Part shown: piece after piece, positions 7,202-24,916 of the stretch
Position numbering within the stretch: position 1 is the first letter of the stretch
Layout of the letters: each line of letters begins with the position of its first letter
Assembly: GCA_964521445.1 (NCBI GenBank)
Contig: CAZFRV010000174.1
Span: 1-44,122 of the forward strand
Direction of reading: 5' to 3'
Length of the DNA: 44,122 nucleotides
From: an uncultured Acidobacteriaceae bacterium
GTDB lineage: Bacteria > Acidobacteriota > Terriglobia > Terriglobales > Acidobacteriaceae
Program-made: the position numbers and the translations under genes
The notes under the pieces: model-generated
Seen by the model: only the letters and a program-made list of their open reading frames with translations
Databases searched by the model: none
Told to the model about the DNA's origin: nothing

Positions 7202-9415
7202 ATGGACCCGATGCAGTCTTTTGTCTTCCTGCAGCTACTGGTGACGGCTTTCCTGGTGGTGCTGTTGTGGTGTGTTTACGTACGCCTTCGCAGGCAGGAG
7301 TTTTTCAGGTGGTGGGCCTGGGCGTGGACTGCATCCGCCGCCTATCTTGCCCTCGGCGTTCTGATCTTCCAACTGGGGAGGGCATGGACGCCGATCAAAG
7401 GCACAACGGTCTTGTTCGCGATGCTCTTCGGTTTCCTGCAGGTTGCTCTCCTGATGTTTGGAGCGTGGAGTCTGCGTTTCCCGGAAAGGCCGTCGCGGCG
7501 CTGGCTGTGGTTGGGAACCGGAGCTGCGCTCGCGGTGGGCGGGCTCAGTTTTGTGCTTGCCTTCTTGTGGCGGGAACGGCCTGTCATCAGCTTCGTGTCG
7601 CGTGAAGCACCGCGAACCTTCGCGCTGGCCGCAGCCTTGCTCTTCTGCGCCGTATTGTTTCTTGCACAATGGCGCAAAAGCCGAAGTTCGGCGGCCGCGA
7701 TCAGCGGTGGGTTTTGTTTGCTCTATGGCATTCACCAGGGCCTCTACGGCATGGCTTTTGTCCACCTGATGATCGTTGGCTACGGGGCGCCCCTTCATCC
7801 CGTTTTTGACTTGCCGATGCGCGCGGCTTCGCTGTTCTCCGCCCTGGACGTAGTGTACGTTTCGGGGATTTGCCTTGGCATCGTGCTGTTACTGGTGGAG
7901 GAACACCGCCGGGCCGAGCAAGCGTTGTTGGAGAGCGCCATGCGCGGCCGCCAAATCACTGAGAACAACGTGGCTTTGCAGACCGAGATCGCGGAGCGGG
8001 AAAGAGTCGAGCAGACCCTACGAGACAGCGAAGCCAAGTTCCGCCTGGTTGCTGAGACAGTCGCCTGCGCTATCTGGATCCATCAAGACGGGCACTTTCG
8101 CTACGTCAACCCGCAAGTTGAAGCCATCGCAGGATACGCCCCCAAAGACCTTGCCTCGGTGGATGTATGGCAACTCGTGCATCCCGATTTCCGGGAAGCA
8201 GTACGGAAGCGAGCGGAGGCGAGATTGCGGGGCGAGCAGGTGCCGTCGCGATACGAATTCAAGATCCTGACCTGGGGCGGCAAAGAACGATGGGTGGACT
8301 TTACCGCGACCATGATCCAATACGAGGGGCGCCCTGCCGTTCTGGCGAGCGGCTTCGATATCACCGAGGCCAAACGCATCGAGCATCAGATCAGGGAACG
8401 CACGGCTTACCTGGAGACCCTGATTTCCAACAACCCGCTTGGCATTGTGGTCATGGACGCCGACCACCGCGTGCAGCTCTGTAATCCGGCCTTCGAAGAG
8501 ATGTTTGCCTACTCGCAGAATGAGCTGGAGGGAGCGAATCTCGATTACTTCATCGCGCCTGAGGATGAAGAAGCAGCCGAGTTGACGCGGCGTATCCAGA
8601 GCGGGCAGAGCGTTCACGCAACCACACGAAGATACCGGAAGGACGGGACGGCTGTGGATGTGGAACTTCACGGAGTTCCCATGTCGCTGGATGGCAGGTT
8701 AGTAGGATGTTACGGCATCTATCAGGACATCACCGAGCGGAAGAAGGTGGAAGAGGGCCTTAGGAATCTGACTTTCCGGGTGATGCAGATCCAGGAGGAG
8801 GAACGGGCGCGCATCGCACGCGAACTGCATGACGACGTCAGCCAGCGGCTGGGCCTGCTTACTTTCCAACTGGACCAAGTGCTGCAAGGTTCTTTGCAAA
8901 CACAATCGCCTTATAGCCGGCAACTGATCGGGCTATCGAAGATCGCGCACCAGCTGTGCGGCGACATTCAGCACCTCACCCGCCATCTTCATCCTTCCCA
9001 CGTTGAGATTGCCGGTCTGGTTTCCGCGGTGTCGGAGTTTTGCGCGGAGTATTCCAGGCAGAACAGGTTTGAAATTGAATTTGCGCACGCCGGGGTACCG
9101 GACGCGCTGCCGCAAGAGGTGAAGTTATGCCTCTATCGCGTGGTCCAGGAAGCTATTCGTAACTCCCAGAAACACAGCGGTTGCCGTTCCGTTAGTGTCG
9201 AATTGAGCGGCTCCACAGAAGCTATCCGTTTGTGCATTTCCGACACCGGGAAAGGATTCGACCCCGGCTCGGCGCGAGGCGCCGGTCTGGGACTGGTTAG
9301 CATGACGGAGCGCGTGAAGAGCCTGGGCGGACAGCTCCGGGTTCAGTCGCGGCCGGGTGGTGGAACTTCCGTGCAAGCCTCCATTCCACTAGCCCGGAGG
9401 GCGGCCGCCAGCTAA
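7202..9415 (+). CDS. Sensor histidine kinase: multi-TM N-terminal sensor, two PAS domains, HisKA_3 (NarL-class) dimerisation domain and HATPase_c
   Basis: About 7 hydrophobic helices in the first ~240 aa. PAS-like segments start at EAKFRLVAETVACAIWIHQDG and LETLISNNPLGIVVMDADHRV. H-box ARIARELHDDVSQRL. G-boxes ISDTGKGFD and GLGLVSMTERV. The start is ATG 7202, or 7166 as in the ORF track. No response regulator is adjacent. Confidence 0.85.
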   Translation: MDPMQSFVFLQLLVTAFLVVLLWCVYVRLRRQEFFRWWAWAWTASAAYLALGVLIFQLGRAWTPIKGTTVLFAMLFGFLQVALLMFGAWSLRFPERPSRRWLWLGTGAALAVGGLSFVLAFLWRERPVISFVSREAPRTFALAAALLFCAVLFLAQWRKSRSSAAAISGGFCLLYGIHQGLYGMAFVHLMIVGYGAPLHPVFDLPMRAASLFSALDVVYVSGICLGIVLLLVEEHRRAEQALLESAMRGRQITENNVALQTEIAERERVEQTLRDSEAKFRLVAETVACAIWIHQDGHFRYVNPQVEAIAGYAPKDLASVDVWQLVHPDFREAVRKRAEARLRGEQVPSRYEFKILTWGGKERWVDFTATMIQYEGRPAVLASGFDITEAKRIEHQIRERTAYLETLISNNPLGIVVMDADHRVQLCNPAFEEMFAYSQNELEGANLDYFIAPEDEEAAELTRRIQSGQSVHATTRRYRKDGTAVDVELHGVPMSLDGRLVGCYGIYQDITERKKVEEGLRNLTFRVMQIQEEERARIARELHDDVSQRLGLLTFQLDQVLQGSLQTQSPYSRQLIGLSKIAHQLCGDIQHLTRHLHPSHVEIAGLVSAVSEFCAEYSRQNRFEIEFAHAGVPDALPQEVKLCLYRVVQEAIRNSQKHSGCRSVSVELSGSTEAIRLCISDTGKGFDPGSARGAGLGLVSMTERVKSLGGQLRVQSRPGGGTSVQASIPLARRAAAS

Positions 9416-10008: not shown

Positions 10009-10523
10009 GTACGGACCTCGCCCTTAGCTGGAGCGATGCGCCGGAAAAAGATTGGCTCCTCAGTTAGGACTCGAACTTGCAACCCTCGAAGGGAAAAGGA
10101 CTATTTCTTTCGTTGTGGTTTTGCGTAATTGCCCGTCATCCGCACAGAATTCCACACGGAGCTGCGCTAACGACGAGAGGCGAGCGCGCGATTTGTGTCA
10201 TTTCCCTGAGCCGGCTTGCTCATCGTAGACGATGCCGCACGTCCTGGGGATCGGTGACCTGGTCGCGGTGACCTTAGTCATCGTCCGATTCGCTCCAGAA
10301 AATCAGAGCTGCCATTGGCGGAGTCCTCCCCGTCTGCAAAGGTACCGGCGATTCACATTAGTACGACGGTAACGTTTGCCGTTAGCGACTGCTGGTTTAA
10401 ATTGCTCACAACGCAGCAGAAATTGGCCCGAAGTGACTCCTCATTTCCTCCCAAGACTCATGGACGGGCACAGGTGCCTCGGGAGTAAACCGAACAATCA
10501 GTGAAAAGGATCAGCAAACGCAC

Positions 10524-11000
10524 ATGAACTCACGCATTTTCAAGACAGCCTTCGTGATCGCGGGGGCGCTCGCCTTGTACCTCCCCCTGCATGCTCAAGT
10601 CAAAGTAACCCTGGTGGCCAGCAAGATCGTCAAGCTTGACGGAGCCGAACAGAAGCAATCCGGTGACAAAGCCAAACCGGGCGATGTGATCGAGTACGAC
10701 GCGGAATACAAAAACACCGAGAAGAGCGCGGTCAAAGATGTTGTCGCCACTCTACCAGTGCCTGCGGGAATGGAATACCTTCCGCAAACGGCCATGCCGG
10801 GCCAGGTGTTGGCCAGCACCGACGGAGCGAATTATGCCCCTGTGCCCTTAAAGAGGGCGGTGCGCGACGCGGGCGGGCAGACGGTCCAGGAGTTGGTCCC
10901 TTATTCAGAGTACCGCTCTTTGCGCTGGAACCTTGGAGACATGGCCGGCGGAATGAGCAAGTCAGTGAAAGCGAGAATGAAAGTAAAGACACAGCAATAG
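10524..11000 (+). CDS. Secreted single-domain DUF11/TIGR01451-type protein; the domain is truncated before its terminal hairpin
   Basis: Signal peptide MNSRIFKTAFVIAGALALYLPLHAQ. The domain core is KPGDVIEYDAEYKNTEKSAVKDVVATLPVPAGMEY...RWNLGDMAGGMSKSVKARMKVKTQQ-stop. It is the first gene of the co-directional operon. Confidence 0.7.
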   Translation: MNSRIFKTAFVIAGALALYLPLHAQVKVTLVASKIVKLDGAEQKQSGDKAKPGDVIEYDAEYKNTEKSAVKDVVATLPVPAGMEYLPQTAMPGQVLASTDGANYAPVPLKRAVRDAGGQTVQELVPYSEYRSLRWNLGDMAGGMSKSVKARMKVKTQQ

Positions 11001-11077
11001 GCAAACAAACACGCACGCAAGAAACCATCAAGCGATTCCCCAGAGCTTGAGATTTTTCTGTAATCGAGGAGAAGGCG

Positions 11078-13750
11078 ATGAAACGGAAGAACTCGCAAGG
11101 GAGGGGGTCGTTTGCAACAGCGGTGCCCTTCATAGTCTTAACGGTGTTGGCTGTAGCGGCGCTTCTTGTGCCCACAGTGGCCAGCGCTCAAACCGCAGCC
11201 GGGACGTCCATCGGCAACCAGGCATCGGCCACATACACAGACAGCTCATCGGTCTCGCGTACGGCGACTTCGAACGTGGTCAACACCATCGTTCAACAGG
11301 TTGCCAGCTTGACTTTGACCGCCAACGGGGCAAAGACAGCGTCTCCGGGTGCACCTGTTTTTTACCCGCACACGTTGACGAACACCGGAAACGGGTCCGA
11401 CAGCTTTACTCTCACGCTGGCCCCGGCACAGTCGGGCGCCTTTACGCTGACCGGCACCCACATCTACCTTGACGCCAATGGCGACGGCATACCGGACAAC
11501 TTTACCGACTTGACTGGGACCAGCGTCACCGTGACCCCGGGCGCGGCGAACGCTTTCAAGTTCGTAATTACCGGTACGGTGCCTCCAGGCGCGACCGCGG
11601 GACAGACCAACAACTTCTCGGTCAGCGCTACTTCGGTTTTTGACAACACCAAGAGCGCCTCCAACACCGATACCACCACGGTCACCTCGAACGCCGTGAT
11701 CAACCTGAACAAGACGATGAGTTCCAACTCTGGTGCGTCACCAAGTGGTCCGTACACGGTCACGTTGACGTACACCAACAGCGGCAACCTCACTGCCACG
11801 ACGCTGAATATCGGCGATGCTCTGCCTGCGGGCATGACCTACGTTGCCGGCAGCGGTCGCTGGAGCGTCACCGGCGCAACCGTCCTGACCGATGCCACAG
11901 GCGACGTCCAGCCGGCCGCAGGATCGCCGCACATCGACTACAGCGTGACCGGCAATACCGTGACCGCGATCGTCGATCAAGTCGCAGCCGGCGTTTCCGG
12001 GCAGATCACCTTCCAGGTAAACATCGCCGCCGGCGTATCTCCCGGCGTGCTGAACAACACCGCAACGCTTTCTTTCAACGACGGCACTGGCACCACGGTG
12101 AACGGTTCCAGCAACACCTATAGCTTTACCGTGCGTCAGAGCGCCGCCGTCACCATCAGCGATACCGGCGTTGCCGCCAACGACAACGACGGCACCATCA
12201 ACGGCATTGACACCATCAACGCCGCCGCTCAAGGCAGCACGGTTACCTTCACCGATGTCGTTACCAATACCGGCAACGGCACCGATTCGTTCGATATCAC
12301 CGTCCCGTCGAACACTTTCCCGGCGGGAACGGTCTTTACCTTGTACAAGAGCGATGGCGTAACGCCGCTTATCGATACCACTGGAAACAGTATTCCCGAT
12401 ACCGGACCGCTGGCCGCCGGCGCCTCCTACACAGTCATTGTGAAGGCCGCGCTGCCTGCGGGCGCGACCGGAGGTCCGTTCAACGCGACGGTAACAGCGA
12501 CATCTACCGTTGCCGGCGCCCTAAACGCCGGCGCGAACGCCAGCATGACGGACCGTTTGGTGGCCATTACCAGCAGCACGGTGGACGTGACCAACAACGC
12601 AGCCATCGGCAGCCCGGGCGTACTAGGCGTCGGCCCCGGTCCGGAAGCATCACCGGTTGTGACCAACGCAACCAATCCCGGTACCACGACTACCTTTACG
12701 CTCTATGTCAACAATACCAGCGGCGCCAGCGTGGCCGATTCGTATGATCTGCTGGCTTCTTCCACCACCACCTTCGGCAGCAGCAGCACGCTCCCGCCAG
12801 GATGGTCGGTGACCTTCCGCGCCAGCAACGGCGCAGATTGCACCGCGGCCAACCTCGGCAGCGTGATCAGCAATACCGGCGTGGTGAACGGCGGTACGGC
12901 AAAGCTTGTATGCGCCGTGATCAGCGTTCCCGCCAACTACGCTGCCGGTGCGCAGGCGGTTTACTTCCAGGCGAAGTCACCCACCTCGGGCGCCCTGGAC
13001 CAGATCCACGATCAGGTGACGGTCAACACCGTGCATAACGTGACCCTCACTCCCAACGGCTCCAACCAGATATTCCCCGGCGGGTCCGTGGTGTACACGC
13101 ATAACTTGACCAACAACGGTAACGTGAGCGAAGCGATCACCTTCAGCAATCCGATCACGTCCGACACACTGGCCGGCTGGTCGTCGGTCCTGTACCAGGA
13201 CACCAACGGCAACGGCATCCTGGACGGAGCTGACCAAGCAGTGTCCACGGCTACAACGTTTACGCTGACGCCCGGGCAGAGCGTGACTATGTTCGTGAAA
13301 GTCACGTCTCCGTCGGGAGCGGCAGTGGGCGCTATCGACACAACCACGCCGCGTGCAGGTTACAACGCAACCTTTGCGACGGCCCAGGACCAGACCACTG
13401 TCATCGACGGCGAATTGCGCCTGGTGAAGCAGCAGGCGCTCGACGCCAACTGTGACGGTGTTCCGGATACCGCGTATCAACAGACCAACATCACCGCTGG
13501 GGCCGTTCCCGGCGCGTGTGTCATCTATCAAATCAATGCAACCAATGCCGGTACCTCGAACATTACCAATGTTGTTGTCAGTGACGCGACACCGGCCTTC
13601 ACCCTGTATCGGAACATTCCGCCGGCAAGCACGACAGTGGGAACCATTGTTGCGCCTGCCAACGGAACCGCTGGAACTATCAGTGCGACGGTGGGCACGC
13701 TGACCCCTGGCCAGTCAGCCGTGATCGTCTTCGCAGTGAAGATCCAGTAA
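11078..13750 (+). CDS. Secreted 890-aa multi-domain DUF11/Ig-like repeat protein (candidate polymerising fibre subunit)
   Basis: AGGAGAAGG RBS followed by ATG 11078. Signal peptide ends ...VPTVASA. About 6-7 beta-sandwich repeats with xPGxxVxYxxTxTNTGN cores and xNTAxLxx...SNxxxxxV ends. T/S/N/G/A-rich composition. Ends ...GQSAVIVFAVKIQ-stop. Confidence 0.85.
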   Translation: MKRKNSQGRGSFATAVPFIVLTVLAVAALLVPTVASAQTAAGTSIGNQASATYTDSSSVSRTATSNVVNTIVQQVASLTLTANGAKTASPGAPVFYPHTLTNTGNGSDSFTLTLAPAQSGAFTLTGTHIYLDANGDGIPDNFTDLTGTSVTVTPGAANAFKFVITGTVPPGATAGQTNNFSVSATSVFDNTKSASNTDTTTVTSNAVINLNKTMSSNSGASPSGPYTVTLTYTNSGNLTATTLNIGDALPAGMTYVAGSGRWSVTGATVLTDATGDVQPAAGSPHIDYSVTGNTVTAIVDQVAAGVSGQITFQVNIAAGVSPGVLNNTATLSFNDGTGTTVNGSSNTYSFTVRQSAAVTISDTGVAANDNDGTINGIDTINAAAQGSTVTFTDVVTNTGNGTDSFDITVPSNTFPAGTVFTLYKSDGVTPLIDTTGNSIPDTGPLAAGASYTVIVKAALPAGATGGPFNATVTATSTVAGALNAGANASMTDRLVAITSSTVDVTNNAAIGSPGVLGVGPGPEASPVVTNATNPGTTTTFTLYVNNTSGASVADSYDLLASSTTTFGSSSTLPPGWSVTFRASNGADCTAANLGSVISNTGVVNGGTAKLVCAVISVPANYAAGAQAVYFQAKSPTSGALDQIHDQVTVNTVHNVTLTPNGSNQIFPGGSVVYTHNLTNNGNVSEAITFSNPITSDTLAGWSSVLYQDTNGNGILDGADQAVSTATTFTLTPGQSVTMFVKVTSPSGAAVGAIDTTTPRAGYNATFATAQDQTTVIDGELRLVKQQALDANCDGVPDTAYQQTNITAGAVPGACVIYQINATNAGTSNITNVVVSDATPAFTLYRNIPPASTTVGTIVAPANGTAGTISATVGTLTPGQSAVIVFAVKIQ

Positions 13751-13760
13751 GAGACAGAAA

Positions 13761-13787
13761 CGGGGAGGCGCTCACGGCGCCTCCCCG
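13761..13787 (+). terminator. Perfect 11-bp GC-rich stem with a 5-nt loop, 10 nt after the stop of the 890-aa gene and with no U-tract. Candidate partial terminator or mRNA-stabilising hairpin inside the operon.
   Basis: CGGGGAGGCGC-tcacg-GCGCCTCCCCG read directly from the sequence. A ~160-nt gap follows before the next start codon. Confidence 0.4.
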
Positions 13788-13945
13788 CAGCTTGAACACG
13801 TTAAACATGGGCCAGGTTCTCTGACTTGGGCGCTCCGAGTAGTCCCGCAGGTTAGGACCGCGGGAGTCAGCCGACAGTCAGGACCCTGGCTGCCATGTGC
13901 AGCTAGTTAGCGTGTTGAGCGAAGTCTCGGCAGAAGTTGGTTCCG

Positions 13946-16900
13946 ATGCGAAAGTCGTATTACATTCTGGCGTGGCTGTACTTGGCGCTCGGGCTCATGG
14001 CCCAGGCGTCTGGGGCCAGTGTTCCTCCCGGGACCTCCATCGACAACCAGGCGACGGCTTCTTACCAGTCTTCCGGGGGGTCGGCAACTTCGGCCAATTC
14101 CAACGTAGTGCATGTGATCGCGCAGGCATCCGGCGCAGGCGCTGCGCTGACCGTCAGCAAGTCAGTATCGAAAGCAACCGCCAACCCCGGAGACCAGCTT
14201 ACTTTCACGTTGAATGTCGCCAATGGCGGGACGGGAGATGCCGTTCCCGTATCGGTTAGCGTTGACGGTGTTCCCGTGCTTAAGATCGTGGTGCGCGACG
14301 TTATTCCGAACAACACCAGGTTTTCGTCGTTTGTCACCGCGGGATCCTCGACGCCGCTTTATCACATATTCGGTTCTCCGCTGCAAAGTTACGTGAGCGC
14401 TGCTCCCTCCGACCTTTCCACCGTTGATGCGATCGCTTTCGTCCTGGATACATTCCCGGCGGCAACCAACGCGAGCTTCAGCTTTAACGTGACGGTCGAC
14501 AGCAACGCCAGCGGGATCCTTCGTAACACCGCGGTGGTGTTTTTCAATAACGGCAGCGATACTTCATCGTCTTCGAACGAAGTTGATGTGACCGTCAATG
14601 GCCCGCCGCCGGGAATCGCCTACTACTTTGATGCGACTTTTTCCAAGGCCATTCAGGCGACGGCCATCACCTCGCCCTTGTGGGTCCAGGTCAACGCCGC
14701 AGCATGCAATGCCGATCCCACAACCGTTGAGACGCGGCCCGTGACTCTGCAGTCCGCGCTGACCGGAGACACGGAAACCTTCACAGCAACGGAAACCGGT
14801 CCCAACACCGGGATCTTCCGCATCTTGCCTGCGGTGCCCATGCGTGACGCCAGCGTGAATCCCGTTGTCTCAGGCAACAAGATCATGGAGGTGCTCAGAA
14901 ACGATCAATTGACGGCATCGTTGAGCGGCTGCGGCACGGCCACGGTCACCGCCACCATCCTGATTGATCCGGGCGGCGTCGTTTTTGACAGCCACAGCAA
15001 TGCGCTGGTTGCCGGAGCGAACGTCACGCTGATCGACGTCACCGGCGGCGGCAACGGCGGCAAGCCTAACCAGCCGGCTTCGGTCTTTCAGTTTGATGGC
15101 GTCACTCCAGCGCCCAGTTCCATAACCACCGGGGCCAACGGCCAGTTCCAGTTTCCGCAGGTGCTGCCGAGCACCTACAAAATCGTAGTGGCGCCGCCGG
15201 CAAACTACACGTTCCCTTCTACCGTCCCGCCAGGGCAGCTTCCTGCCGGGCGCCGAATCGACCCTGCAGCTTCGTACGACGGAAGTTTTGTGGTGAGCAT
15301 CAGCGCCGGCGCAACGATCTTTGACGTTCCCGTGGATACGTCGGCGGCAACGCCGATCTTCATCCAGAAGACGGCCGACCGCGTGAGCGTGGAGCAAGGC
15401 GACTTTGTGAACTACACCGTCGAGATCAAGAACCTGACCTCCACGCCGCTCCCCAACGCGCAGGTAAAAGATACGTTGCCTCCCGGCTTTGTTTACCAGC
15501 TCAAAAGCGCACGCCTGGATGGCGCGCCGATTACCGATCCCGCCGGCGGCAAAGGGCCGATTCTCACCTTCAGCATCGGAACCCTCGCTGCCAACGCGGA
15601 CGTCAAGCTGACATACCGCGTCTTCGTCGGTCCGGGAGCAGGCGTTGGCGACGCGCTCAACAAGGCAGTGGCGCTGAGCGGACAGAGCCAGTCCAACGTG
15701 GCTTCGGCGCGCGTGACCATCACGGCCGGCATCTTCAGCGATAACGGTTTCATCGTCGGCAAGGTGTTCGAAGACTGCAACCGAAACCGCGTGCAGGATC
15801 CCGGAGAACTGGGAATCCCCGGGGTTCGCCTGTACCTGGAAGACGGCACCTTCGCCGTTACCGACGAACGCGGCAAATACAGCCTCTACGGAGTGCCCGG
15901 TCGCACTCACATTCTGAAAGTGGACACTTACAGCCTGCCCGCCGGCGTTGACCTGGTTCCGATCTCCAGCCGCAACGCCGGCGACGGTGGGAGCCGTTTC
16001 ATTGATCTCAAGTTTGGCGAAATGCAGAAAGCGGACTTTGCGGTCATCGGCTGCTCCGAGCCTCTCACCCGCGAGATCGCGAGCCGCGCGAAGAGGCAGG
16101 CTGGCAACGGCGACGAGATGGCCCGCGGAGTGAAGGCTCAATTCAACCCGCAACCTGTCGAGAAGAGCGCGGCGGAGGTCAAGGCTCTGGGGGCCAGCGG
16201 CTTTGTCGGCGCAACCGGCGCGTCGCAACAAGCTCCTGGCAACGCCGTCTCGGGCCAACCCGCCGCAAACATCGCGCCTTCGAGTAAGCCCGCGGCCACA
16301 TCGCCTGCTACGGTCGCTGATCCCAATGAGGAACTCTTGAAGATGGACAACGAACTCGGGTTTGTCGATCTTCATGACCACATCGTGCTGCCTTTTGCGC
16401 AAACTAGAATCCGTGTCAAAGGCCGCATGGGAAACACCTTCAGGCTTACCGTCAATGGCACGGAGCTACCGGCAAAACAGATAGGCAGCAAGTCCACCGT
16501 GGCCGCCAGGCAGTTGGAGGTCTGGGAGTTCGTTGGCGTCAATCTCCGCCCCGGTAAGAATGAGCTCATCCTGACCCAGCTCGATTCATGGGGCAACGAT
16601 CGCGGCACGCACATCATCGAGGTAGTCGCCCCCAGCCAGCTTGGCAAGCTGAAGATTGATGTACCCAAGACGACGTTCGCTGCTGACGGCAAGACTCCCG
16701 TCAAGGTAACGGTCCGGCTGACCGACTCCAACGATGTGCCGGTAACCGTGCGCACACCCATCACCCTGGAGACGACCAACGGGGTGTGGCTGGTTCGGGA
16801 CCTGAATCCCAAGGAGCCGGGAACTCAGGTGTTTATCGAAGGTGGACACGCCGAGTATGAACTGATGCCCCCCAGCGATCCCGGTCCCGGCGTGATCCGT

Positions 16901-19417
16901 GTCAGCAGCGGCGGAGTCAGCTTTGAAAGAAAGGTCGAATTCGTTCCTGAACTGCGCCCGATGATCGCCGCGGGCATTGTGGAGTATCAGGTAAACTTCG
17001 GCAGCCTGGGCCACAACGCGATCCAGCCTTCCCTGAATGATGGCTTCGAGCACGAGCTGCAGCTCTTCTCCGCGCAGAGCGCCGATGGCTCAACCAGTTC
17101 CGGCGGCCACGCCGCTCTGCTGCTGAAAGGAAAGATCAAAGGCGACAATCTTCTCACCCTGGCCTACGATTCCGACAAAGCGTCCGGAGAGCGGCTCTTT
17201 CGAGACATTCAGCCGGACCAGTATTATCCGGTCTACGGAGATGCCTCGGTCCGCGGGTACGACGCTCAGTCCACCAGCAAGGCCTACATTCGCATCGACC
17301 ATGGCCGCACCTACGTGCTGTACGGAGACTTCCTGACTTCCGATCCCGGTGCAGGCAACAGCCTGAGCAACTACAGCCGGAGCATGACCGGCGTCAAGGA
17401 GCACTTTGAAAATGAAAGGGTGAATCTGAGCGGCTTCGCCAGCTACGATTCCAAGCGGCAGATTGTCGATGAACTGCCCGCCAACGGAACCTCCGGGCCG
17501 TTTACGCTTTCCAATCCGAATGGAGTGGAGAACAGCGAAAAGGTCGAGGTACTGACACGAGACCGCAATCAGCCCGCCGTCATTTTGGACATAAGACAAC
17601 TGACGCGATTTGTCGACTATGAGTTCGAGCCCTTTACCGGACAGTTGCTCCTGAAAGCTCCTATTCCGACACTGGATCCGAACCTCAACCCCCTCTCCCT
17701 CAGAATCACCTACGAGGTCAACACTGGCGGCGACAAGTTCTGGGTGGGCGGAGGAACAGCGCAGGTGAAGCTGACCAAATCACTGCAAATCGGCGGAACT
17801 TTCGTGAACGACAGCGATCCCCAAGACCCGAACAAGTTGTACGCGATCAACACCGTCATCAAGCTCCAGGAAAAGACTTCCTTCATCGCCGAGTTTGCCG
17901 GCACTCAGCATGAGAGCGAGGGCACCGGCACCGGCTACCGGCTCGAACTGAATCACGACGGCGCCAGGCTGAAGATGAAGGCCTACTTCACGCGCACCGA
18001 CGCCAATTTCGATAACCCGACCTCGATCATGAACAAGGGGAGAGGAGAATCGGGAATCAAGACCAGTTATGCACTCAACAGCACAACCCGCATCGTAGGT
18101 GAGTTTATTCGCACCGAAGACGTGACCACCACAGGCACCCAGCAGGGCGGCCAGCTTGCCTTGCAGAAGAGCCTGCCTGGGAACATGCAGATGAGCTTTG
18201 GTTTCCGCCATGCGCAAGAGAGCGCAGCTCCAGCTAACACCAGCGACGTAGGGGTGACTCCCAACACGATTGATACGCTGTTCAGCAAGCTCAGCTTGCA
18301 GGTTCCCCACTTCAGCCGCGCGACCGCCAGCGGCGAGTACGAGCAGGACATCGCCGACATGGACAAGCGTATGGTCGCGCTGGGCGGGAACTACCAGCTC
18401 TGGTCGAAAGGCAAGCTCTATTTCCGCCAGGAGCTCATCTCCTCGCTCGGCGACGTGTACTCCCTGAACAGCTTGCAGCACCGGAACACCACCCAGTTTG
18501 GCATTGATACGACGTATTTCAAGGATGCTCACGTTTTCAGCGAGTACCGCATCCGCGATCTCTCCAATGGCCGCGAGGCTGAAGCCGCAATCGGTCTGCG
18601 GAACAACTGGCACCTGGCCCAGGGGCTGGTGGCCAGCACCGGAGTGGAAAGCATCCGCACTCTGAACGGAACCGACGCCAGCTCGCTGGCTCTCACCGGA
18701 GCCGTGGATTACACTGCGCATCCTGACTGGAAGGGTTCGGCCCGCATGGAGTGGCGCGGCAGCTCCACCACCAACAACATTCTGAGCACTCTGGGGTTTG
18801 CCGCGCGTCTCAGCGATAGCTGGACCTTCCTGGGTCGCGAGGTTCTTGCCACCACCACAACCAAGGGAACCAGCGGCGGCACGCATGTCCAAGACCGGCT
18901 GCAGTTCGGCTTCGCACTGCGCGATGCCGAGCGAAACCGCTGGAACGCCCTCAACATGTTCGAAATCAAGGCCGACGACAATAACTCCGTCCCCGGACAG
19001 CCGTCGCGAACCACCGCAGGCATCTTCTCCACCACTGCCAACTACCAGGTGGCCGCGCCGTTTACGCTTTCCGGACGGTACGCCGCCAAGTGGAGCTTGT
19101 CGGGCGATAACCTCCTCTCCAGTTCCGCAACCACGCAGCTGGTGGGCGGCCGCGCCACCTGGGATCTGAGCCGTAAATGGGATTTCGGAGTGGCTGCCAG
19201 CACTACTTACAGTCTGGGCGTTGCCTCGCAGCAATACGGCATGGGATTTGAAACCGGCTACAAGCTGGTGCAGAACCTGTGGATCTCAACCGGCTACAAC
19301 CTCCTGGGGTTCCGCAATCCAGACCTGACGGGAGAAGACGTTACGCGCCGGGGCGCTTTCATCCGCATGAGATTCAAGTTCGATGAAAACGTCTTCTCGC
19401 CGAGGAAGAAAAATTGA
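13946..19417 (+). CDS. Giant (~1823 aa) secreted protein: DUF11, Cna-B/SdrD-B and Big_1 Ig-like domains fused to a ~820-aa C-terminal predicted outer-membrane beta-barrel
   Basis: ORF 13937..19417, with the ATG at 13946 (MRKSYYILAWLYLALGLMAQASG signal). DUF11 cores: NPGDQLTFTLNVANGG and EQGDFVNYTVEIKNLT. SdrD-B-like: GKVFEDCNRNRVQDPGELGIPGVRLYLEDG. Big_1-like: FAADGKTPVKVTVRLTDSNDVPV. The C-terminal ~820 aa show alternating amphipathic strands and end ...GAFIRMRFKFDENVFSPRKKN. Confidence 0.85.
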   Translation: MRKSYYILAWLYLALGLMAQASGASVPPGTSIDNQATASYQSSGGSATSANSNVVHVIAQASGAGAALTVSKSVSKATANPGDQLTFTLNVANGGTGDAVPVSVSVDGVPVLKIVVRDVIPNNTRFSSFVTAGSSTPLYHIFGSPLQSYVSAAPSDLSTVDAIAFVLDTFPAATNASFSFNVTVDSNASGILRNTAVVFFNNGSDTSSSSNEVDVTVNGPPPGIAYYFDATFSKAIQATAITSPLWVQVNAAACNADPTTVETRPVTLQSALTGDTETFTATETGPNTGIFRILPAVPMRDASVNPVVSGNKIMEVLRNDQLTASLSGCGTATVTATILIDPGGVVFDSHSNALVAGANVTLIDVTGGGNGGKPNQPASVFQFDGVTPAPSSITTGANGQFQFPQVLPSTYKIVVAPPANYTFPSTVPPGQLPAGRRIDPAASYDGSFVVSISAGATIFDVPVDTSAATPIFIQKTADRVSVEQGDFVNYTVEIKNLTSTPLPNAQVKDTLPPGFVYQLKSARLDGAPITDPAGGKGPILTFSIGTLAANADVKLTYRVFVGPGAGVGDALNKAVALSGQSQSNVASARVTITAGIFSDNGFIVGKVFEDCNRNRVQDPGELGIPGVRLYLEDGTFAVTDERGKYSLYGVPGRTHILKVDTYSLPAGVDLVPISSRNAGDGGSRFIDLKFGEMQKADFAVIGCSEPLTREIASRAKRQAGNGDEMARGVKAQFNPQPVEKSAAEVKALGASGFVGATGASQQAPGNAVSGQPAANIAPSSKPAATSPATVADPNEELLKMDNELGFVDLHDHIVLPFAQTRIRVKGRMGNTFRLTVNGTELPAKQIGSKSTVAARQLEVWEFVGVNLRPGKNELILTQLDSWGNDRGTHIIEVVAPSQLGKLKIDVPKTTFAADGKTPVKVTVRLTDSNDVPVTVRTPITLETTNGVWLVRDLNPKEPGTQVFIEGGHAEYELMPPSDPGPGVIRVSSGGVSFERKVEFVPELRPMIAAGIVEYQVNFGSLGHNAIQPSLNDGFEHELQLFSAQSADGSTSSGGHAALLLKGKIKGDNLLTLAYDSDKASGERLFRDIQPDQYYPVYGDASVRGYDAQSTSKAYIRIDHGRTYVLYGDFLTSDPGAGNSLSNYSRSMTGVKEHFENERVNLSGFASYDSKRQIVDELPANGTSGPFTLSNPNGVENSEKVEVLTRDRNQPAVILDIRQLTRFVDYEFEPFTGQLLLKAPIPTLDPNLNPLSLRITYEVNTGGDKFWVGGGTAQVKLTKSLQIGGTFVNDSDPQDPNKLYAINTVIKLQEKTSFIAEFAGTQHESEGTGTGYRLELNHDGARLKMKAYFTRTDANFDNPTSIMNKGRGESGIKTSYALNSTTRIVGEFIRTEDVTTTGTQQGGQLALQKSLPGNMQMSFGFRHAQESAAPANTSDVGVTPNTIDTLFSKLSLQVPHFSRATASGEYEQDIADMDKRMVALGGNYQLWSKGKLYFRQELISSLGDVYSLNSLQHRNTTQFGIDTTYFKDAHVFSEYRIRDLSNGREAEAAIGLRNNWHLAQGLVASTGVESIRTLNGTDASSLALTGAVDYTAHPDWKGSARMEWRGSSTTNNILSTLGFAARLSDSWTFLGREVLATTTTKGTSGGTHVQDRLQFGFALRDAERNRWNALNMFEIKADDNNSVPGQPSRTTAGIFSTTANYQVAAPFTLSGRYAAKWSLSGDNLLSSSATTQLVGGRATWDLSRKWDFGVAASTTYSLGVASQQYGMGFETGYKLVQNLWISTGYNLLGFRNPDLTGEDVTRRGAFIRMRFKFDENVFSPRKKN

Positions 19418-22400
19418 TGCGTCACATGGCAGGAGCAGAAATCCGATGGCTGGCCCGCGGTTCAGATTTAACTGAAAACCGAAGGCCGAAGTCTTTTCTG
19501 GCCTGGTGTGTTGCAGCGCTGGTCATTCTCATTTCCGGCGCAACGGCGACCGCCGACGTTCGTGACCAGGTATATTCAGCCGGCCTGGCTACGCGAAACA
19601 TCTACCTGGTGAATGCCAACGGGACGGTCACCTCCCAATTCACCAATTACTCCGGGACCGCGTCGGCAGCGATGGCGCAGCGGGCAAGTGACGGAGTCAT
19701 CTTCATCATTACCCAGGTGGCGAACGGCCAGGTCTATACCTGGAATCCGGCAACCCCGGCCACTGCGCCGGTTCTGTTAGGCACTACCGGCGCCGCTATT
19801 CCTTACATCCCCCGGCTGGCATTTTCTCCAGGCGGGGTACTTTACGCAGTGGACACCAACACCGCGGACCTTTACACGATCAACCAAAGCACCGGGGCGG
19901 CGACGGTGGTAGGCGCGCTCTCCGGTGTGCCAACCAACCTTGGCGGTGACATCGGGTTCGGTCCGGATGGGACGCTCTACATGGTCGCAGGCACAACCAT
20001 CTACACTGTGCCGCTCGCCGGTGGCGCTGTCACGAGCCTGGGCACGATCACGGGACTCTCCGGCGGCGCGACCGCGATCGTGGGCATGACCTTCGACGCC
20101 AACGGGCGCATGCTGGTGGAAGATGACCAGAATCCGGCTCAGCTCTACTCCGTGGCGCTCCCTTCACGCGTTGCGACTGCGTTTACCGGGACCATGACGA
20201 CTTCGCAGGGCGACTTGGCCAGCGCCCCGCGCGTCCAGATTACGGGAACAGTTTTTGAGGACGTGAACTATGGAGGCGGAGCCGGCCGCAGTCTTGCCGC
20301 TTCCAGTGGAGTCGGCAGACCCAATGCCAGAGTAGAGCTTTATGACGCTGCCGGTAATTTCATCACTTCCGCCACCACCAATTCGTCCGGAGTCTATACG
20401 CTCACGGGAGCCGCCGGACAGACGTACACGATTCGCGTGGTGGATTCGTCGGTGGCATCATCGCGTCCGGGGTCCACATCCAGCCTGATCGGAGTGCAAA
20501 CATTCCGGACCAGCGGTCTGACCGGAACCGTGGGGACAGCGGATACCAACCGCGTGGGCGGCGAAGATCCCACCAAGATCGACGCCGGCAACGGCAGCAC
20601 CACGCTGGCCGCGCTCACTAGCGGCAACAACACGGCAGAATCGATCACCAGCGTTGCTCTGGGGACCGGCAGCGTCACCGGAATTGATTTTGGTTTCAAC
20701 TTCGATACCATCGTCAGTACTCGTGATTCCGGCCAGGGAACGCTGCGCCAGTTCCTCATCAACAGCAACACCCTGACCAATGCCGGATTGGCCCAGGCGG
20801 GCGGAACGGCCGGAGTGGAAAGCAGCATCTTTATGATTTCCAACGGCAGCGCGGTTCCGGGTCTGCGCGCCGGCCTCACCAACCAATTGACTTCAGGCGT
20901 GGCGCAGATCGTTGTCACTTCGCAGCTTCCGTCGATCACCGATACCAACACCTTGCTTGACGGAACCGAACAGACCAGCAACGTCGGCGACACCAACTCC
21001 GGAGCCCTGGGCACGGGCGGTACCGTCGGCGTGGATGCGCTGGGCCTCTCCACGGTGAACAGGCCCGAGGTGCAATTGAGCGCGGCCCAAGGCACGATCG
21101 GGTTGGGAATCCAGATTCAAGCCAACAACACAGCCGTGAAGGGCTTTGCCATTTACGGGTTCGGGACCGCAGCTAACACCAACGGAAGCGCCAACATCGA
21201 GATTGAGAGCGGCATTACGGGCGCGTCCATTCAGCAGAACGTGCTGGGCACAACTGCAACCAGCCTTGCCGATCCCGGCAGCGCGGCCCGCTCCCTCGGC
21301 GACAACATACGCTCGGCCGGCGGCAAATCCGGGACCGTGCAGAACAACCTGATCGGCTTCTCCCAGGGTAAAGGCATTGCGCTCGAGAGCAGCTCCACCG
21401 GATGGTCCATCCAGAACAACGAAGTCCGCAACAACGGCATCAACAATCCGGGGTTGGGCGGCATGAACATCGGAACCGGCTCTACGGCCACTGTTTCCGG
21501 GAACCTCTTCGTCGCCTCCTTGGGTCCGGGCATCGATACCTCGCAAAGTTCCGGTTCCAACACCTTCACGGATAACACCGTCACCGGAAACGGCACCGGC
21601 AGCGGCGGTACTCTGGTCGATCCTGGCATTCGCATCTACGGCAGCAGCAACAGCGTGACCAAAAACATCATTTCGTCCAACGTGGGCGCGGGTGTCCTGG
21701 TCACTTCGGGAGCTTCCAGTACCATCATCAGCCAGAACTCGATTTTCCTGAACGGGACCGTCGGCACGCCCACGCACGAGATCGGCATCGATCTTGAATC
21801 GGCGACCGACAACGCCAGCCTGGGCACCTCGCCGTTTGTTACGCTTAACGATTCTGGCGACGTGGACACTGGCGGCAACGGCCTGCTCAACTATCCTATT
21901 CTGCAAAGCGCGACCATCAGCTCGGGAACGCTCACGCTGTCTGGCTTCGCGCGCCCTGGCTCCGTGATCGAGTTGTTCGTCGCCTCGCCTGATCCTTCCG
22001 GGTTCGGCCAGGGACAGACTTATCTGACTACAGTAACCGAGGGATCAGGCTCCGACCTGGATGCCACAACCGGAACCTACGGACCGGGCGCAATCAACGG
22101 CATCAGCCAGGGTACGGACACCACCAACAAGTTCAAGTTTGCGATTTCCGTAGGCAATGGAATCAGCCCCGGCGCTGTGCTGACGGCTACCGCGACCCTG
22201 GCCGGAGCAACATCGGAATTCAGCGGCAACGTGACCGTGAGTGTTGCCACGACGGTCAACGGAGCGGTTTACCTTGACGCCAATCACAACGGCTCGCTCG
22301 ACAGCGGCGAAAGCTGGGCCAGCGGCTCGAGCGTTTTCGTCAATCTGGTTTCCGGAGGGTCGGTGGTGCAATCCATCAGCGTACCGGCAGGCGCTGGGAC

Positions 22401-23631
22401 TTTCTCCTTCACCAACGTGGCCGCCGGAACCTACACCATGGTGGTGGCGAACTCGGCTTCCGCGACCACGGCTGTTGCTCCGAGCGGTTTTGCCTTTGTC
22501 GCACCAACCACGGGGACGCAACAGATCACCATTGCCAACGGCGTCATGAACAACCAGAATTTCGGACTCTTCAAGGGCAGCCTGGTGAGTGGCAAGGTTT
22601 TCAAGGACACCGGAACCGGCGGTGGCACGGCGAACAACGGAGTGCTCGATGGCGGCGAGGCCGGGTTGGGCGGAATCGCCGTGAAGGCTACGGACGGAGG
22701 AAGCACAACATTTGATTCCACGCTGACCGCCAGCGACGGCTCTTACTCGCTGTATATCGTCTCCGGAGCCACTTCCGTGGCTGTTATCGAAACCAACGCT
22801 GCCGGCTACGTCTCGACCGGCGCTTCGGTGGGAACCACCGGCGGCAGCTACAATCGAGCCACCGACACGGTCAGCTTCTCCAAAGCCGGAGAGGCTATCT
22901 TCACCGGCGTGAACTTCGGCGACGTTCCACAGAACACTTTTCAGAACAACGAAGCCCAGCAAGGCTTGCCTGGAACCGTGCTGTTCTACGCTCACACCTT
23001 CGCTCCAGGAACGGCTGGGCAACTTACGTTCTCTCTGGCTTCTACGACGGCTCCGAACAACGTTGCCTTCACCCGTATCCTTTATCAGGACAGCAACTGC
23101 AACGGCCTGCTGGATGCAAGTGAACCGGCGATTAATGGGCCGATTACAACGGTAGCCGGCACGAACCTGTGCATCATCATGAAGGTCACTATACCTAACG
23201 GCGCTCCGTTCAACGCCACGGACAGCACCACCGTCACCGCCAACTTTACGTACACGAACGCCAGTCCCGCGCTTTCTGCCAGCTACAGCGTAAACGACCT
23301 CACGACGGTGGGAACCGGCGCCAACGCCGGCCTGCGGTTGGACAAAGCGGTGGACAAGACAACGGCGCTCCCGGGCGCGAACCTGACCTACACCATTACC
23401 TTCACCAACGACAGCACGTCGCCCATTTCCAACCTCAAGGTGAATGACAGCACGCCCTCATATACGAGCTTCGTGAGCGCTTCCTGCGGCAGTCCGCTCC
23501 CCGCAAACCTTAGCGGCTGTTCGATTACAGCGCCCAGCGCAGGCCAGACGGGAAACATTCAGTGGACCTTTACGGGAACCCTTGCCCCCAGCCAAGCCGG
23601 CACTGTCTCATTTGTCGTGAAGATTCAATAG
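19417..23631 (+). CDS. Giant (~1404 aa) secreted protein: beta-propeller-like N-domain, SdrD-B/Cna-B domains, right-handed parallel beta-helix and a C-terminal truncated DUF11 domain
   Basis: ATG 19417 shares one nt with the upstream TGA (TGATG). Signal anchor FLAWCVAALVILISGATATA. Propeller-like repeats (LYAVDTNTADLYTINQSTGAATVVG; GPDGTLYMVAGTTIYTV). SdrD-B-like GTVFEDVNYGGGAGRS. Beta-helix repeats (NNLIGFSQGKGIALESS..., NNEVRNNG..., NIISSNVGAGVLV...). C-terminal DUF11 LPGANLTYTITFTNDS...GTVSFVVKIQ-stop. Confidence 0.85.
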   Translation: MRHMAGAEIRWLARGSDLTENRRPKSFLAWCVAALVILISGATATADVRDQVYSAGLATRNIYLVNANGTVTSQFTNYSGTASAAMAQRASDGVIFIITQVANGQVYTWNPATPATAPVLLGTTGAAIPYIPRLAFSPGGVLYAVDTNTADLYTINQSTGAATVVGALSGVPTNLGGDIGFGPDGTLYMVAGTTIYTVPLAGGAVTSLGTITGLSGGATAIVGMTFDANGRMLVEDDQNPAQLYSVALPSRVATAFTGTMTTSQGDLASAPRVQITGTVFEDVNYGGGAGRSLAASSGVGRPNARVELYDAAGNFITSATTNSSGVYTLTGAAGQTYTIRVVDSSVASSRPGSTSSLIGVQTFRTSGLTGTVGTADTNRVGGEDPTKIDAGNGSTTLAALTSGNNTAESITSVALGTGSVTGIDFGFNFDTIVSTRDSGQGTLRQFLINSNTLTNAGLAQAGGTAGVESSIFMISNGSAVPGLRAGLTNQLTSGVAQIVVTSQLPSITDTNTLLDGTEQTSNVGDTNSGALGTGGTVGVDALGLSTVNRPEVQLSAAQGTIGLGIQIQANNTAVKGFAIYGFGTAANTNGSANIEIESGITGASIQQNVLGTTATSLADPGSAARSLGDNIRSAGGKSGTVQNNLIGFSQGKGIALESSSTGWSIQNNEVRNNGINNPGLGGMNIGTGSTATVSGNLFVASLGPGIDTSQSSGSNTFTDNTVTGNGTGSGGTLVDPGIRIYGSSNSVTKNIISSNVGAGVLVTSGASSTIISQNSIFLNGTVGTPTHEIGIDLESATDNASLGTSPFVTLNDSGDVDTGGNGLLNYPILQSATISSGTLTLSGFARPGSVIELFVASPDPSGFGQGQTYLTTVTEGSGSDLDATTGTYGPGAINGISQGTDTTNKFKFAISVGNGISPGAVLTATATLAGATSEFSGNVTVSVATTVNGAVYLDANHNGSLDSGESWASGSSVFVNLVSGGSVVQSISVPAGAGTFSFTNVAAGTYTMVVANSASATTAVAPSGFAFVAPTTGTQQITIANGVMNNQNFGLFKGSLVSGKVFKDTGTGGGTANNGVLDGGEAGLGGIAVKATDGGSTTFDSTLTASDGSYSLYIVSGATSVAVIETNAAGYVSTGASVGTTGGSYNRATDTVSFSKAGEAIFTGVNFGDVPQNTFQNNEAQQGLPGTVLFYAHTFAPGTAGQLTFSLASTTAPNNVAFTRILYQDSNCNGLLDASEPAINGPITTVAGTNLCIIMKVTIPNGAPFNATDSTTVTANFTYTNASPALSASYSVNDLTTVGTGANAGLRLDKAVDKTTALPGANLTYTITFTNDSTSPISNLKVNDSTPSYTSFVSASCGSPLPANLSGCSITAPSAGQTGNIQWTFTGTLAPSQAGTVSFVVKIQ

Positions 23632-23956
23632 TTCAAAATCCGCGAAAGTCCTTGCCCGCCCGCATCGTTCTTAGCGCAGATTCTTGTTTTGCTGACACGG
23701 TCAATCCGCTAAATCCAAGAATCATGAAAACCGCCACCAACCTAAATTCTATATAGTTTTTGTTTGACAACTAACAGGATCGTTCTCTATGAAATCTGTC
23801 AGCTTAGTGCCCCGACAGGGAAACCCAGTTTCCCCAGATAAGTTGACCTATACCGCTGCGCGCTGATGGTAGGGGCGGCATAGGCAGGTCGCCCAGCTTT
23901 TTCCTTTCCTTCTGTCCCTCACGACATGCGAGGGCCACCCGCCCTCTTCGAATCGA

Positions 23957-24916
23957 CTACTGGGGCTTCTTCATGTCATTCGGAACAGGTCGCTCGCGGT
24001 TCGGCGCCTCGGTTTTAGCGATCATTTGCCGGGGTAGTGCCACCGGGCGGCCATCCATGCCAAGGTAGGCAACCGGTTTCATCCCGACCTTCGGGTCGGT
24101 TGGTGCGTAGATTACCCGTATCGCTGCAACCTGGTCTTCCACGAACGACGCCGCGGGCGAGTGGAGGATGCCCACCTGCACCGATTCAATGCGAGCTCCC
24201 TTGCGTTCCGGAGCTTTGAATTCGGCCGTCGCGATTTTCTGCAAGCGTGCAGCCTCTTCCAGCGCCTTGGGGTCGATCAGGGGCCACGAAAGTTCGAGAG
24301 CGGCAATGTTCCCATCGCCATCCAGGTCGAGCGCCAGGCGCGAGTTCAAGACCGGCACGCCGCCAACGACGCGCCTCACGATCAGGCTCCGGCGGTCCTT
24401 TCTTGGCGGGTTGACTTCCATTTGTCGCGTGTCCGGATTCATCCTGCCTTCGGTGACATATTGCTGGAGGATTTTGGTGTCGGCGATCTCATTCCTCTTG
24501 ACGCCGAGGCCGGTCAAGATAGCCATGCCGCGTTCGGTCAACTGCTCATCTGTGCCGCGAAATGCGCTCTTGCCAGCCAGTCCCGCCTTGCCGGTTTGTA
24601 CAAAATAGGCATTTCCAGCGGGGCGGTAGCTGACCGTCGTGGTGCCGTCGGTGACTGCCTGAAAGCCGTGGTCGGATACGGCAACCAGCTTGTTCCCCCA
24701 TTTGATGCCGAAGACCTTGGCGCCAATATTTTTAAGACGTGCGGCATCCTCGGCGGGCAGCTTTTCCGCCTTGGGCAAGTCTTCAACCCTCTTGGGCGAG
24801 ACGACCTCGCGTTGCTCCATGCCCGGCATTTTCTCTCCAGGCTGCTCATCTGCCGCAAAACCTGCGCCTGTTGCGGCAAGCAGCACAGAAGCCAAAACCA
24901 AATTCAGTGTGTTCAT
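23957..24916 (-). CDS. Secreted hypothetical protein (319 aa)
   Basis: Signal peptide MNTLNLVLASVLLAATGAGFA. I recognise no family. It lies 47 nt downstream of, and is co-oriented with, the 24964..25794 gene. The + ORFs across it are Arg/Ala/Gly-rich antisense shadows. Confidence 0.6.
   Translation of the reverse strand: MNTLNLVLASVLLAATGAGFAADEQPGEKMPGMEQREVVSPKRVEDLPKAEKLPAEDAARLKNIGAKVFGIKWGNKLVAVSDHGFQAVTDGTTTVSYRPAGNAYFVQTGKAGLAGKSAFRGTDEQLTERGMAILTGLGVKRNEIADTKILQQYVTEGRMNPDTRQMEVNPPRKDRRSLIVRRVVGGVPVLNSRLALDLDGDGNIAALELSWPLIDPKALEEAARLQKIATAEFKAPERKGARIESVQVGILHSPAASFVEDQVAAIRVIYAPTDPKVGMKPVAYLGMDGRPVALPRQMIAKTEAPNRERPVPNDMKKPQ

Follow-up and report, generated by a model that had tools for sequence, protein, structure and literature searches.

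A naturally split CLIPPER (DUF11) domain and a probable isopeptide-locked subunit joint in a four-gene operon of an uncultured Acidobacteriaceae bacterium

CLIPPER domains, formerly DUF11 (PF01345), are CnaA-like immunoglobulin-like (Ig) domains of the stalks of fibrillar adhesins (Costa et al., bioRxiv 10.1101/2025.04.25.650565). Four adjacent genes on contig CAZFRV010000174.1 of an uncultured Acidobacteriaceae bacterium (assembly GCA_964521445.1) encode proteins in which the terminal copy of this domain is divided between polypeptides, with the core at the C-terminus of three proteins and the last two strands, as an orphan hairpin, at the N-terminus of two. This split anatomy is real, non-random and conserved. 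Our computational results favour, with appreciable doubt, a joint in which the hairpin of one subunit completes the C-terminal domain of another in trans, together with a probable intermolecular isopeptide lock. A preliminary description of this DNA had proposed hairpin complementation of the donor-strand kind only. Complementation is supported by the split anatomy and its conservation, but a purely donor-strand contact overlooks that CLIPPER is an isopeptide domain, and the contact is therefore probably covalent, as in a catcher/tag pair. Positions are those of the window (the whole stretch of 44,122 nucleotides (nt) that was analysed), and source labels of homologues are the names on metagenome contigs or metagenome-assembled genomes (MAGs).

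The open reading frames (ORFs) follow one another on the + strand in the order small protein, shaft, anchor and tip, and the tip gene start overlaps the anchor gene stop by 4 nt. They encode proteins of 158, 890, 1826 and 1405 amino acids (aa); the third has a TTG start (1823 aa from ATG) and the fourth had been given as 1404 aa. All four N-termini carry type I-like signal peptides with no lipobox Cys, as read by eye from the sequence. The elements on which the argument rests are as follows, and the peptides quoted in the preliminary description are encoded where it had placed them.

10524..11000, + strand: gene of the 158-aa protein, a secreted single CLIPPER core that lacks the final two strands; acceptor-type, with first-strand Lys34 and, at the catalytic Asp position, Leu77.
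11078..13750, + strand: shaft gene (890 aa), with signal peptide, orphan hairpin, five Ig-like domains and a C-terminal truncated CLIPPER; putative donor and acceptor.
11189..11302, + strand: orphan N-terminal hairpin of the shaft, aa 38-75, QTAAGTSIGNQASATYTDSSSVSRTATSNVVNTIVQQV; Asn47 at nt 11216-11218.
11684..12136, + strand: complete internal CLIPPER of the shaft, aa 203-353, with Lys212, Asp247 and Asn327; the intact reference domain used here.
13403..13747, + strand: truncated C-terminal CLIPPER of the shaft (acceptor), aa 776-890, with Lys784 at nt 13427-13429 and Asp836 at nt 13583-13585, ending ...VFAVKIQ.
13937..19417, + strand: anchor gene (1826 aa), with signal peptide, orphan hairpin, a CLIPPER / CarboxypepD_reg / SdrD_B / Big_1-like passenger and a C-terminal outer-membrane barrel region; putative donor only.
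14018..14125, + strand: orphan N-terminal hairpin of the anchor, aa 28-63, SVPPGTSIDNQATASYQSSGGSATSANSNVVHVIAQ; Asn37 at nt 14045-14047.
16937..19414, + strand: last ~826 aa of the anchor, conserved throughout as a region; a conserved module of ~290 aa and, after it, a putative outer-membrane beta-barrel of ~535 aa with the C-terminal end ...FIRMRFKFDENVFSPRKKN.
19414..23631, + strand: tip gene (1405 aa), with a DUF6923/tachylectin-like propeller, a right-handed beta-helix, SdrD_B domains and a C-terminal truncated CLIPPER; putative acceptor only.
23311..23628, + strand: truncated C-terminal CLIPPER of the tip, aa 1300-1405, with Lys1311 and Asp1345, ending ...VSFVVKIQ.

Pfam and NCBIfam models detect DUF11/TIGR01451 in all four proteins. 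PF01345 scores 67.1, 35.5 and 27.3 bits in the 1826-, 1405- and 890-aa proteins (cut-off 24.6); the 158-aa protein falls under that cut-off with 17.3 bits and passes with TIGR01451 (29.9 bits, cut-off 24). The C-terminal copies of the 158-, 890- and 1405-aa proteins all stop at position 84-85 of the 114 positions of PF01345, covering positions 9-85, 12-84 and 2-85 (the last at 42.7 bits), whereas complete internal copies reach 100-111. The intact reference domain of the shaft covers positions 3-111, has an AlphaFold2 confidence (pLDDT) of ~90 and aligns with 9IFR, the CLIPPER crystal structure discussed below. The three truncated proteins run to the stop codon as ...AVIVFAVKIQ (shaft), ...TVSFVVKIQ (tip) and ...RMKVKTQQ (158 aa). 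Of the 151 columns of the complete internal domain, the shaft C-terminal domain takes 16-115 in a profile-profile alignment (hhalign) with profiles built from ~100 full-length shaft orthologues (P 1.7e-9), and the protein therefore ends 36 columns early. The shaft N-terminal hairpin covers columns 123-151 of the same domain (P 5.7e-5) and gives no alignment with the other four shaft domains tested (P >= 0.018). The three C-terminal copies are thus half-domains whose strands are not contiguous on one polypeptide, while the internal copies are complete.

Two explanations that the preliminary description had set against its own proposal do not fit these alignments. Given where the PF01345 matches stop and the 36-column shortfall, no C-terminal domain is complete by itself, and the N-terminal segments of the 890- and 1826-aa proteins are not the tail of a full first domain, since they stand directly after the signal peptide and align only to the last 29 columns, the two strands that the acceptors lack. 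A Pfam run on the hairpin plus the first shaft domain found no DUF11. Loop length at the junction agrees with this partition. In the intact internal domain 10 residues separate the Ile of the last core strand from the Asn (VNI-AAGVSPGVLN-N), and the same spacing is found at the shaft junction (VKI-Q/QTAAGTSIG-N, the slash marking the break between chains) and at the anchor junction (Q/SVPPGTSID-N). With cleavage sites read directly from the sequence under the -3/-1 rule, the predicted nick between acceptor and donor keeps the loop length of the intact domain. Other details of the preliminary description needed correction. The two hairpin stretches are 57% identical in DNA, not about 80%, and 16/31 in protein; only the first ~26 nt approach ~85%. 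The motif N-(T/Q)-A-x-(L/V/A)-x-(F/Y), said to close every internal domain, holds at the two N-termini and in two internal domains, and the third canonical internal domain has NKAVAL.

The 9IFR structure contains an intramolecular isopeptide bond between Lys715 in the first strand and Asn806 in the N-x-A strand, with a nearby catalytic Asp in an xDxLP motif (10.1101/2025.04.25.650565). The best internal domain of the 1826-aa protein reaches 9IFR in a sequence search of the Protein Data Bank (PDB; E 0.0097); PDB searches with the full-length proteins and with the fused-domain profile returned nothing useful. Lys715 corresponds to the K of FIQK, the Asp of LNDTL to the D of VKDTLP, and Asn806 to the N of ALNKAVA, the same Asn as in the N-x-A hairpin motif noted previously. 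Internal domains carry the triads K478/D512/N575 and K75/D121/N197 in the 1826-aa protein and K212/D247/N327 in the shaft. The split domain aligns to 9IFR in the same way, and its triad consists of K784 and D836 in the acceptor and N47 from the N-terminus of another chain, with Asn47 at the isopeptide-Asn position that aligns with Asn806. These three residues are invariant across 59 non-redundant shaft sequences (52-100% identity). Judged from the alignments, the triad is divided between acceptor and donor as it is in engineered tag/catcher pairs. The hairpin strands belong to the preceding core because 9IFR ties their Asn covalently to the first strand of that core. The first shaft domain (domain A) lacks an invariant Lys, two distant orthologues having Arg at position 86, so Asn47 has no cis partner besides the far C-terminal domain. 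A register shift that would make the hairpin part of the following domain was ruled out, given the 9IFR topology and a domain A that offers no Lys partner. The shaft acceptor also has a ~20-residue insertion after its first-strand Lys (window 13403-13500, aa 784-813) with two invariant Cys, and this pair suggests a disulfide-stapled loop beside the predicted bond site.

By the names of its closest relatives, the organism stands near Candidatus Angelobacter (Acidobacteriota). A contig scan with a single protein gave only such close relatives, and more distant operons were reached through contigs that encode homologues. The comparison covers 20 close loci (L001-L020) and five distant operons (L021 and L026-L029) with shafts 52-60% identical, of which one comes from a MAG labelled Rhodoferax (L021). 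Gene order and end features are kept at every covered locus, close and distant, and orthologous operons therefore retain truncated ends and orphan hairpins together, a point that the preliminary description had put forward as a check. Among the matches listed, all full-length shaft orthologues have a signal peptide followed by ...AGTxIGNQASATY... and end in ...FxVKIQ(Q/P). The hairpin is among the most conserved shaft segments, with an identity of 0.76-0.78 compared to an average of ~0.55 in the set below 70% identity. It occurs at the start of all anchors examined, with the Asn in 22/23, and tips in related operons retain the truncated end, in which the Lys is accompanied by Asp or Glu. The heads of these tips are mutually unrelated (Gly-rich, DUF8293 or beta-helix) and the acceptor domain is retained. 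An exhaustive search with the acceptor domain of the tip brought up further proteins, 834-3950 aa long, whose C-termini carry this truncated domain; its representative matches were dominated by giant multi-repeat proteins and only a handful of C-terminal matches were usable. In the tip of the window, the N-terminus (window 19414-20300) matches DUF6923 and, weakly, tachylectin-type propeller repeats. The bookkeeping of donors and acceptors proposed previously is consistent with the data and conserved in the distant operons; the roles of shaft, anchor, tip and cap attached to it are our interpretation.

The 158-aa protein is conserved as a single CLIPPER core with a hairpin on neither side. Among the matches listed, its orthologues are mostly ~150-180 aa long with a KVKTQQ-like tail. 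All of them, distant ones included, have Leu at the Asp position (ATLPVPAG versus GDALPAG), and Arg replaces the first-strand Lys in at least two orthologues inspected. From these substitutions we infer that the protein may bind hairpins without locking them, which would make it a candidate non-covalent chaperone or cap.

The proposed assembly runs as follows. Each acceptor would end with a CLIPPER core that carries the first-strand Lys and the catalytic Asp and lacks the last two strands, and each donor would start, after signal-peptide cleavage, with those two strands, the Asn among them. On entering the open C-terminal domain of another subunit, a hairpin would rebuild a CLIPPER domain across two chains and so gather Lys784, Asp836 and Asn47, and an autocatalytic Lys-Asn isopeptide bond would most likely lock the joint. 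The resulting topology would be an outer-membrane barrel, the anchor passenger (1826 aa), n shaft subunits (890 aa) and the tip (1405 aa), with the propeller and beta-helix head distal. The 158-aa protein could act as a reversible hairpin binder, either as a periplasmic chaperone against premature irreversible polymerisation or as a cap. Export could follow one of two routes: subunits may pass through the anchor barrel in an usher-like manner, tip first, or they may be added distally to an anchored seed, tip last.

Structure prediction is compatible with docking. An AlphaFold2 self-complemented construct was assembled from natural pieces in natural order (hairpin 38-75, the Gly/Pro loop 508-528 as linker and domain 776-890). 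It gave a mean pLDDT of 87.4 and a predicted template-modelling score (pTM) of 0.81, with pLDDT values of 93-95 in the hairpin, ~49 in the linker and 90-98 in the domain. This pTM appears to be near the ceiling of ~0.84 for a docked hairpin (146/174 residues ordered, ~28 disordered), compared to ~0.63 if only the 115-residue domain were rigid. Foldseek searches with the construct returned weak, uninformative matches, and 9IFR was not among the 50 matches listed.

Several observations weigh against a covalent joint in trans. An acceptor-free AlphaFold2 control (residues 38-358: hairpin, domain A and complete domain B) also gives a hairpin pLDDT of 87-92, and pLDDT alone would thus not separate an orphan hairpin from one that packs on its own domain. 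The Foldseek neighbours of this control are tandem Ig adhesins and pilins (Cna, AgI/II, BcpA, SpaD, PrgB and a donor-strand-complemented CfaE-CfaB fusion). Appending the hairpin to acceptors adds +1.7 to +4.4 PF01345 bits and a shuffled hairpin adds +1.5, which makes this test uninformative; the appended hairpins do extend the match to positions 103-111, and the anchor hairpin on the shaft C-terminal domain takes it to 111 of 114. Many hairpin residues beyond Asn47 are invariant too, so invariance of the triad is not specific proof of a bond. The passage of subunits of 890 to 1405 aa across the outer membrane is unaccounted for, and the organism is known only from MAGs.

The alternative that fares best retains hairpin complementation in trans as a classical, non-covalent donor-strand contact, with Lys, Asp and Asn simply inherited from the ancestral domain. 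We consider it unlikely, even though all of the anatomical and conservation evidence fits it equally. Some CLIPPER domains have no isopeptide bond (10.1101/2025.04.25.650565), and the anchor hairpin of the Rhodoferax-labelled operon (L021, 12761-12900) reads ...GTVITSTATAAY..., with Ser in place of Asn; that anchor joint at least would have no isopeptide bond and could be non-covalent or use different chemistry. Oligomers of the Clostridium perfringens protein BsaA are stable in sodium dodecyl sulfate (SDS) even without their bond (10.1101/2024.11.04.621531). Against a purely non-covalent contact stand the invariance of the triad in 59 shafts, its retention in tips and the Asn in all but one of the anchors. 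Only the 158-aa family lacks the catalytic Asp, and it does so consistently, which suggests that the residue matters where it is kept.

It is still harder to credit that the subunits do not complement one another at all. The four proteins would then be separate adhesins, the short C-terminal core would be stable or serve as an export or recognition signal, and the hairpin would pack on its own first domain. The confident prediction of the hairpin in the acceptor-free control fits this explanation, as does the use of the same barrel family by giant CLIPPER adhesins without split ends. C-terminal Ig-like sorting domains also exist in other systems, such as the C-terminal domain of the type IX secretion system (T9SS). 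The only homology of the hairpin, however, is with the strands that the acceptors lack, and in 9IFR the equivalent strands are tied covalently to the preceding core. The type to which the first domain belongs (A, C and E) recurs in the shaft without a hairpin of its own, preceded only by the last strands of the previous domain. The lack of a hairpin on either side of the 158-aa protein and the conservation of the bookkeeping in distant operons also speak against separate adhesins. Cis complementation, in which the shaft hairpin closes its own C-terminal domain to give a ring or auto-inhibited monomer, is highly improbable: in the linked AlphaFold2 construct the hairpin and the C-terminal domain of one chain do prove compatible, but five rigid Ig-like domains (~700 residues) lie between the shaft ends, and a donor-only anchor with an acceptor-only tip and 158-aa protein makes sense only in trans.

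The barrel region that would anchor the fibre belongs to a wider, uncharacterised family. The C-terminal ~826 aa of the anchor, which ends ...PRKKN, have no Pfam match at E <= 10 and no PDB sequence relative, and no recognised autotransporter or intimin/invasin barrel domain was found in them; Big_1 and Invasin_D3 matches upstream of the region are below threshold only. The region shows the periodicity of amphipathic strands and has a ...RMRFKF motif close to its end. There are 469 homologues with source labels of Acidobacteriota, Verrucomicrobiota, several Proteobacteria and Gemmatimonadota, a few of which weakly match DUF2490, OMP_b-brl and KdgM. The first ~290 aa of the region are strongly conserved and soluble-looking (FRDIQPD..YPVYGD...LYGDF...NGTSGP). 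In Hydrogenophaga laconesensis and another genome (L023 1584-14223; L024 1701-14355), a barrel-family protein of 1046 and 1063 aa is encoded after a CLIPPER/SdrD_B adhesin gene of 2767-2806 aa (4-nt overlap) and before an OmpA-family gene. This arrangement looks like an uncharacterised adhesin-barrel-OmpA module. Its adhesins have ordinary ends and no split domain, and the barrel is therefore a general partner of CLIPPER adhesins, with the split joint an addition specific to the four-gene operon. On another contig, of high G+C content, three short CLIPPER ORFs (292-350 aa) lie upstream of a barrel protein (L025 6031-9148); given their Arg/Gly-rich nonsense translations, a large adhesin broken up by frameshifts seems likelier here than small pilins.

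Two stem-loops accompany the genes.

13760..13788, + strand: 12-bp G+C-rich stem-loop directly 3' of the shaft gene (-27 kcal/mol, z -4.3), with no T-tract on the + strand.
23873..23894, + strand: terminator-like stem-loop with a T-run, 3' of the last gene.

The second probably marks the operon end. The first is possibly an attenuator or messenger RNA (mRNA) stabiliser that favours the first two genes over anchor and tip, and its position suggests, by analogy with major-pilin genes, that anchor and tip are outnumbered by the small protein and the shaft. Speculatively, an excess of the 158-aa protein would fit a stoichiometric chaperone better than a one-per-fibre cap. Directly 5' of the first operon gene is a 515-bp non-coding stretch (window 10009-10523), and a PAS-PAS-HisKA_3 histidine kinase is encoded upstream of the operon (window 7166-9415); one distant operon (L026) likewise has a kinase and response regulators upstream. 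Downstream, the opposite (-) strand (window 23957-25794) encodes a secreted 319-aa protein without a Pfam match and a 276-aa secreted protein that matches DUF6345; this pair has no evident tie to the operon. Pfam and NCBIfam found no chaperone-usher, sortase or other pilus or secretion genes among the ten neighbouring genes.

Full-text literature searches with partial journal coverage turned up neither a split CLIPPER/DUF11 joint nor a fibre of this kind in diderm bacteria, and no DUF11 donor-strand fibre, of which the preliminary description had likewise known none. The operon may represent a new class of fibre in bacteria with two membranes, a proposal that we advance tentatively, at somewhat less than an even chance. 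Such fibres would polymerise covalently through a naturally split CLIPPER domain, free of sortase and of chaperone-usher machinery, with their own barrel anchor, swappable tips of up to ~4000 aa and a dead-catcher chaperone; by contig labels they would occur in Acidobacteriota and Betaproteobacteria, with the barrel family in several more phyla. If this is correct, Gram-negative fibres would have a new assembly principle, in which strand exchange is combined with an autocatalytic covalent lock within a split adhesin domain, and it would explain how very long, mechanically resilient adhesive stalks arise from separately secreted modules that are fastened to an outer-membrane barrel. Among the abundant Acidobacteriota of soil (Candidatus Angelobacter), for which attachment to surfaces is ecologically important, the operon is common.

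Chaperone-usher pili (type 1/P) offer a parallel in overall scheme. In both systems an Ig-like fold would be completed with the N-terminal extension of the next subunit, the order would run from an acceptor-only tip through a dual shaft to a donor-only terminator or anchor, and a stem-loop follows the major-subunit gene. The operon differs in that two strands would be donated rather than one, subunits are multidomain proteins of 890-1826 aa, the barrel lies within the terminal subunit and a covalent lock is predicted. Searches of the four proteins and the ten neighbours with Pfam and NCBIfam gave no PapD-like chaperone, PapC-like usher or fimbrial pilin domain. Type V pili of Bacteroidota (FimA/Mfa1) are also Gram-negative, with two-strand exchange and dedicated anchor and tip subunits. 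Their donor strands are C-terminal, while those of the operon are N-terminal, and their subunits are proteolysis-activated lipoproteins of a different fold with no covalent lock; Pfam gave no FimA-family match in the four proteins.

Gram-positive sortase pili (SpaA, BcpA, RrgB) share CnaA/CnaB-type Ig domains, tip, shaft and base subunits, and covalent inter-subunit isopeptide bonds, the last predicted for the operon. Here the bond would be autocatalytic in a reconstituted domain, and anchoring would be by an outer-membrane barrel instead of peptidoglycan. The C-termini (...VKIQ, ...KTQQ and ...PRKKN) have no LPXTG or pilin motif, and no sortase is present among the neighbours scanned. Archaeal threads (Saci_0406) are sortase-free, head-to-tail donor-strand fibres that are also locked by intermolecular isopeptide bonds (PMC9715654), and BsaA of C. 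perfringens (TasA family) forms sortase-free donor-strand fibres with an isopeptide lock and an N-E-K triad (10.1101/2024.11.04.621531). Both consist of single small subunits of unrelated fold, with one donated strand and neither an outer membrane nor a barrel anchor; the four proteins and the neighbours scanned gave no match to TasA/camelysin-type subunits or a SipW-type peptidase. With threads and BsaA, strand complementation combined with an inter-subunit isopeptide lock is already known; the split CLIPPER joint appears to be new.

Known CLIPPER stalks (9IFR) share with the operon the family, the CnaA-like Ig fold, the triad and a beads-on-a-string stalk with SdrD_B neighbours. The known domain is contiguous and its bond intramolecular, whereas the terminal copy in the operon is split over two polypeptides, so that any bond would be intermolecular. 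Engineered split isopeptide domains, such as isopeptag/pilin-C, SpyTag/SpyCatcher, SnoopTag/SnoopCatcher and the 'molecular welding' of RrgA, reassemble spontaneously in vitro (PMC5333627, PMC6539128). Their partition is that of the operon, with a short strand-forming tag and a catcher that holds the catalytic acid. In isopeptag/pilin-C the Asn is on the tag and the Lys on the catcher, as in the operon, whereas the reactive residue of SpyTag is Asp, unlike the Asn of the operon hairpin. If the proposed joint is borne out, the chemistry of Tag/Catcher biotechnology would have a natural counterpart, and the operons could yield new tag/catcher pairs that may be orthogonal, among them a natural non-covalent form. 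The existing pairs are laboratory constructs derived from Gram-positive adhesins, whereas the split described here would be natural, lie in separate Gram-negative genes and serve polymerisation.

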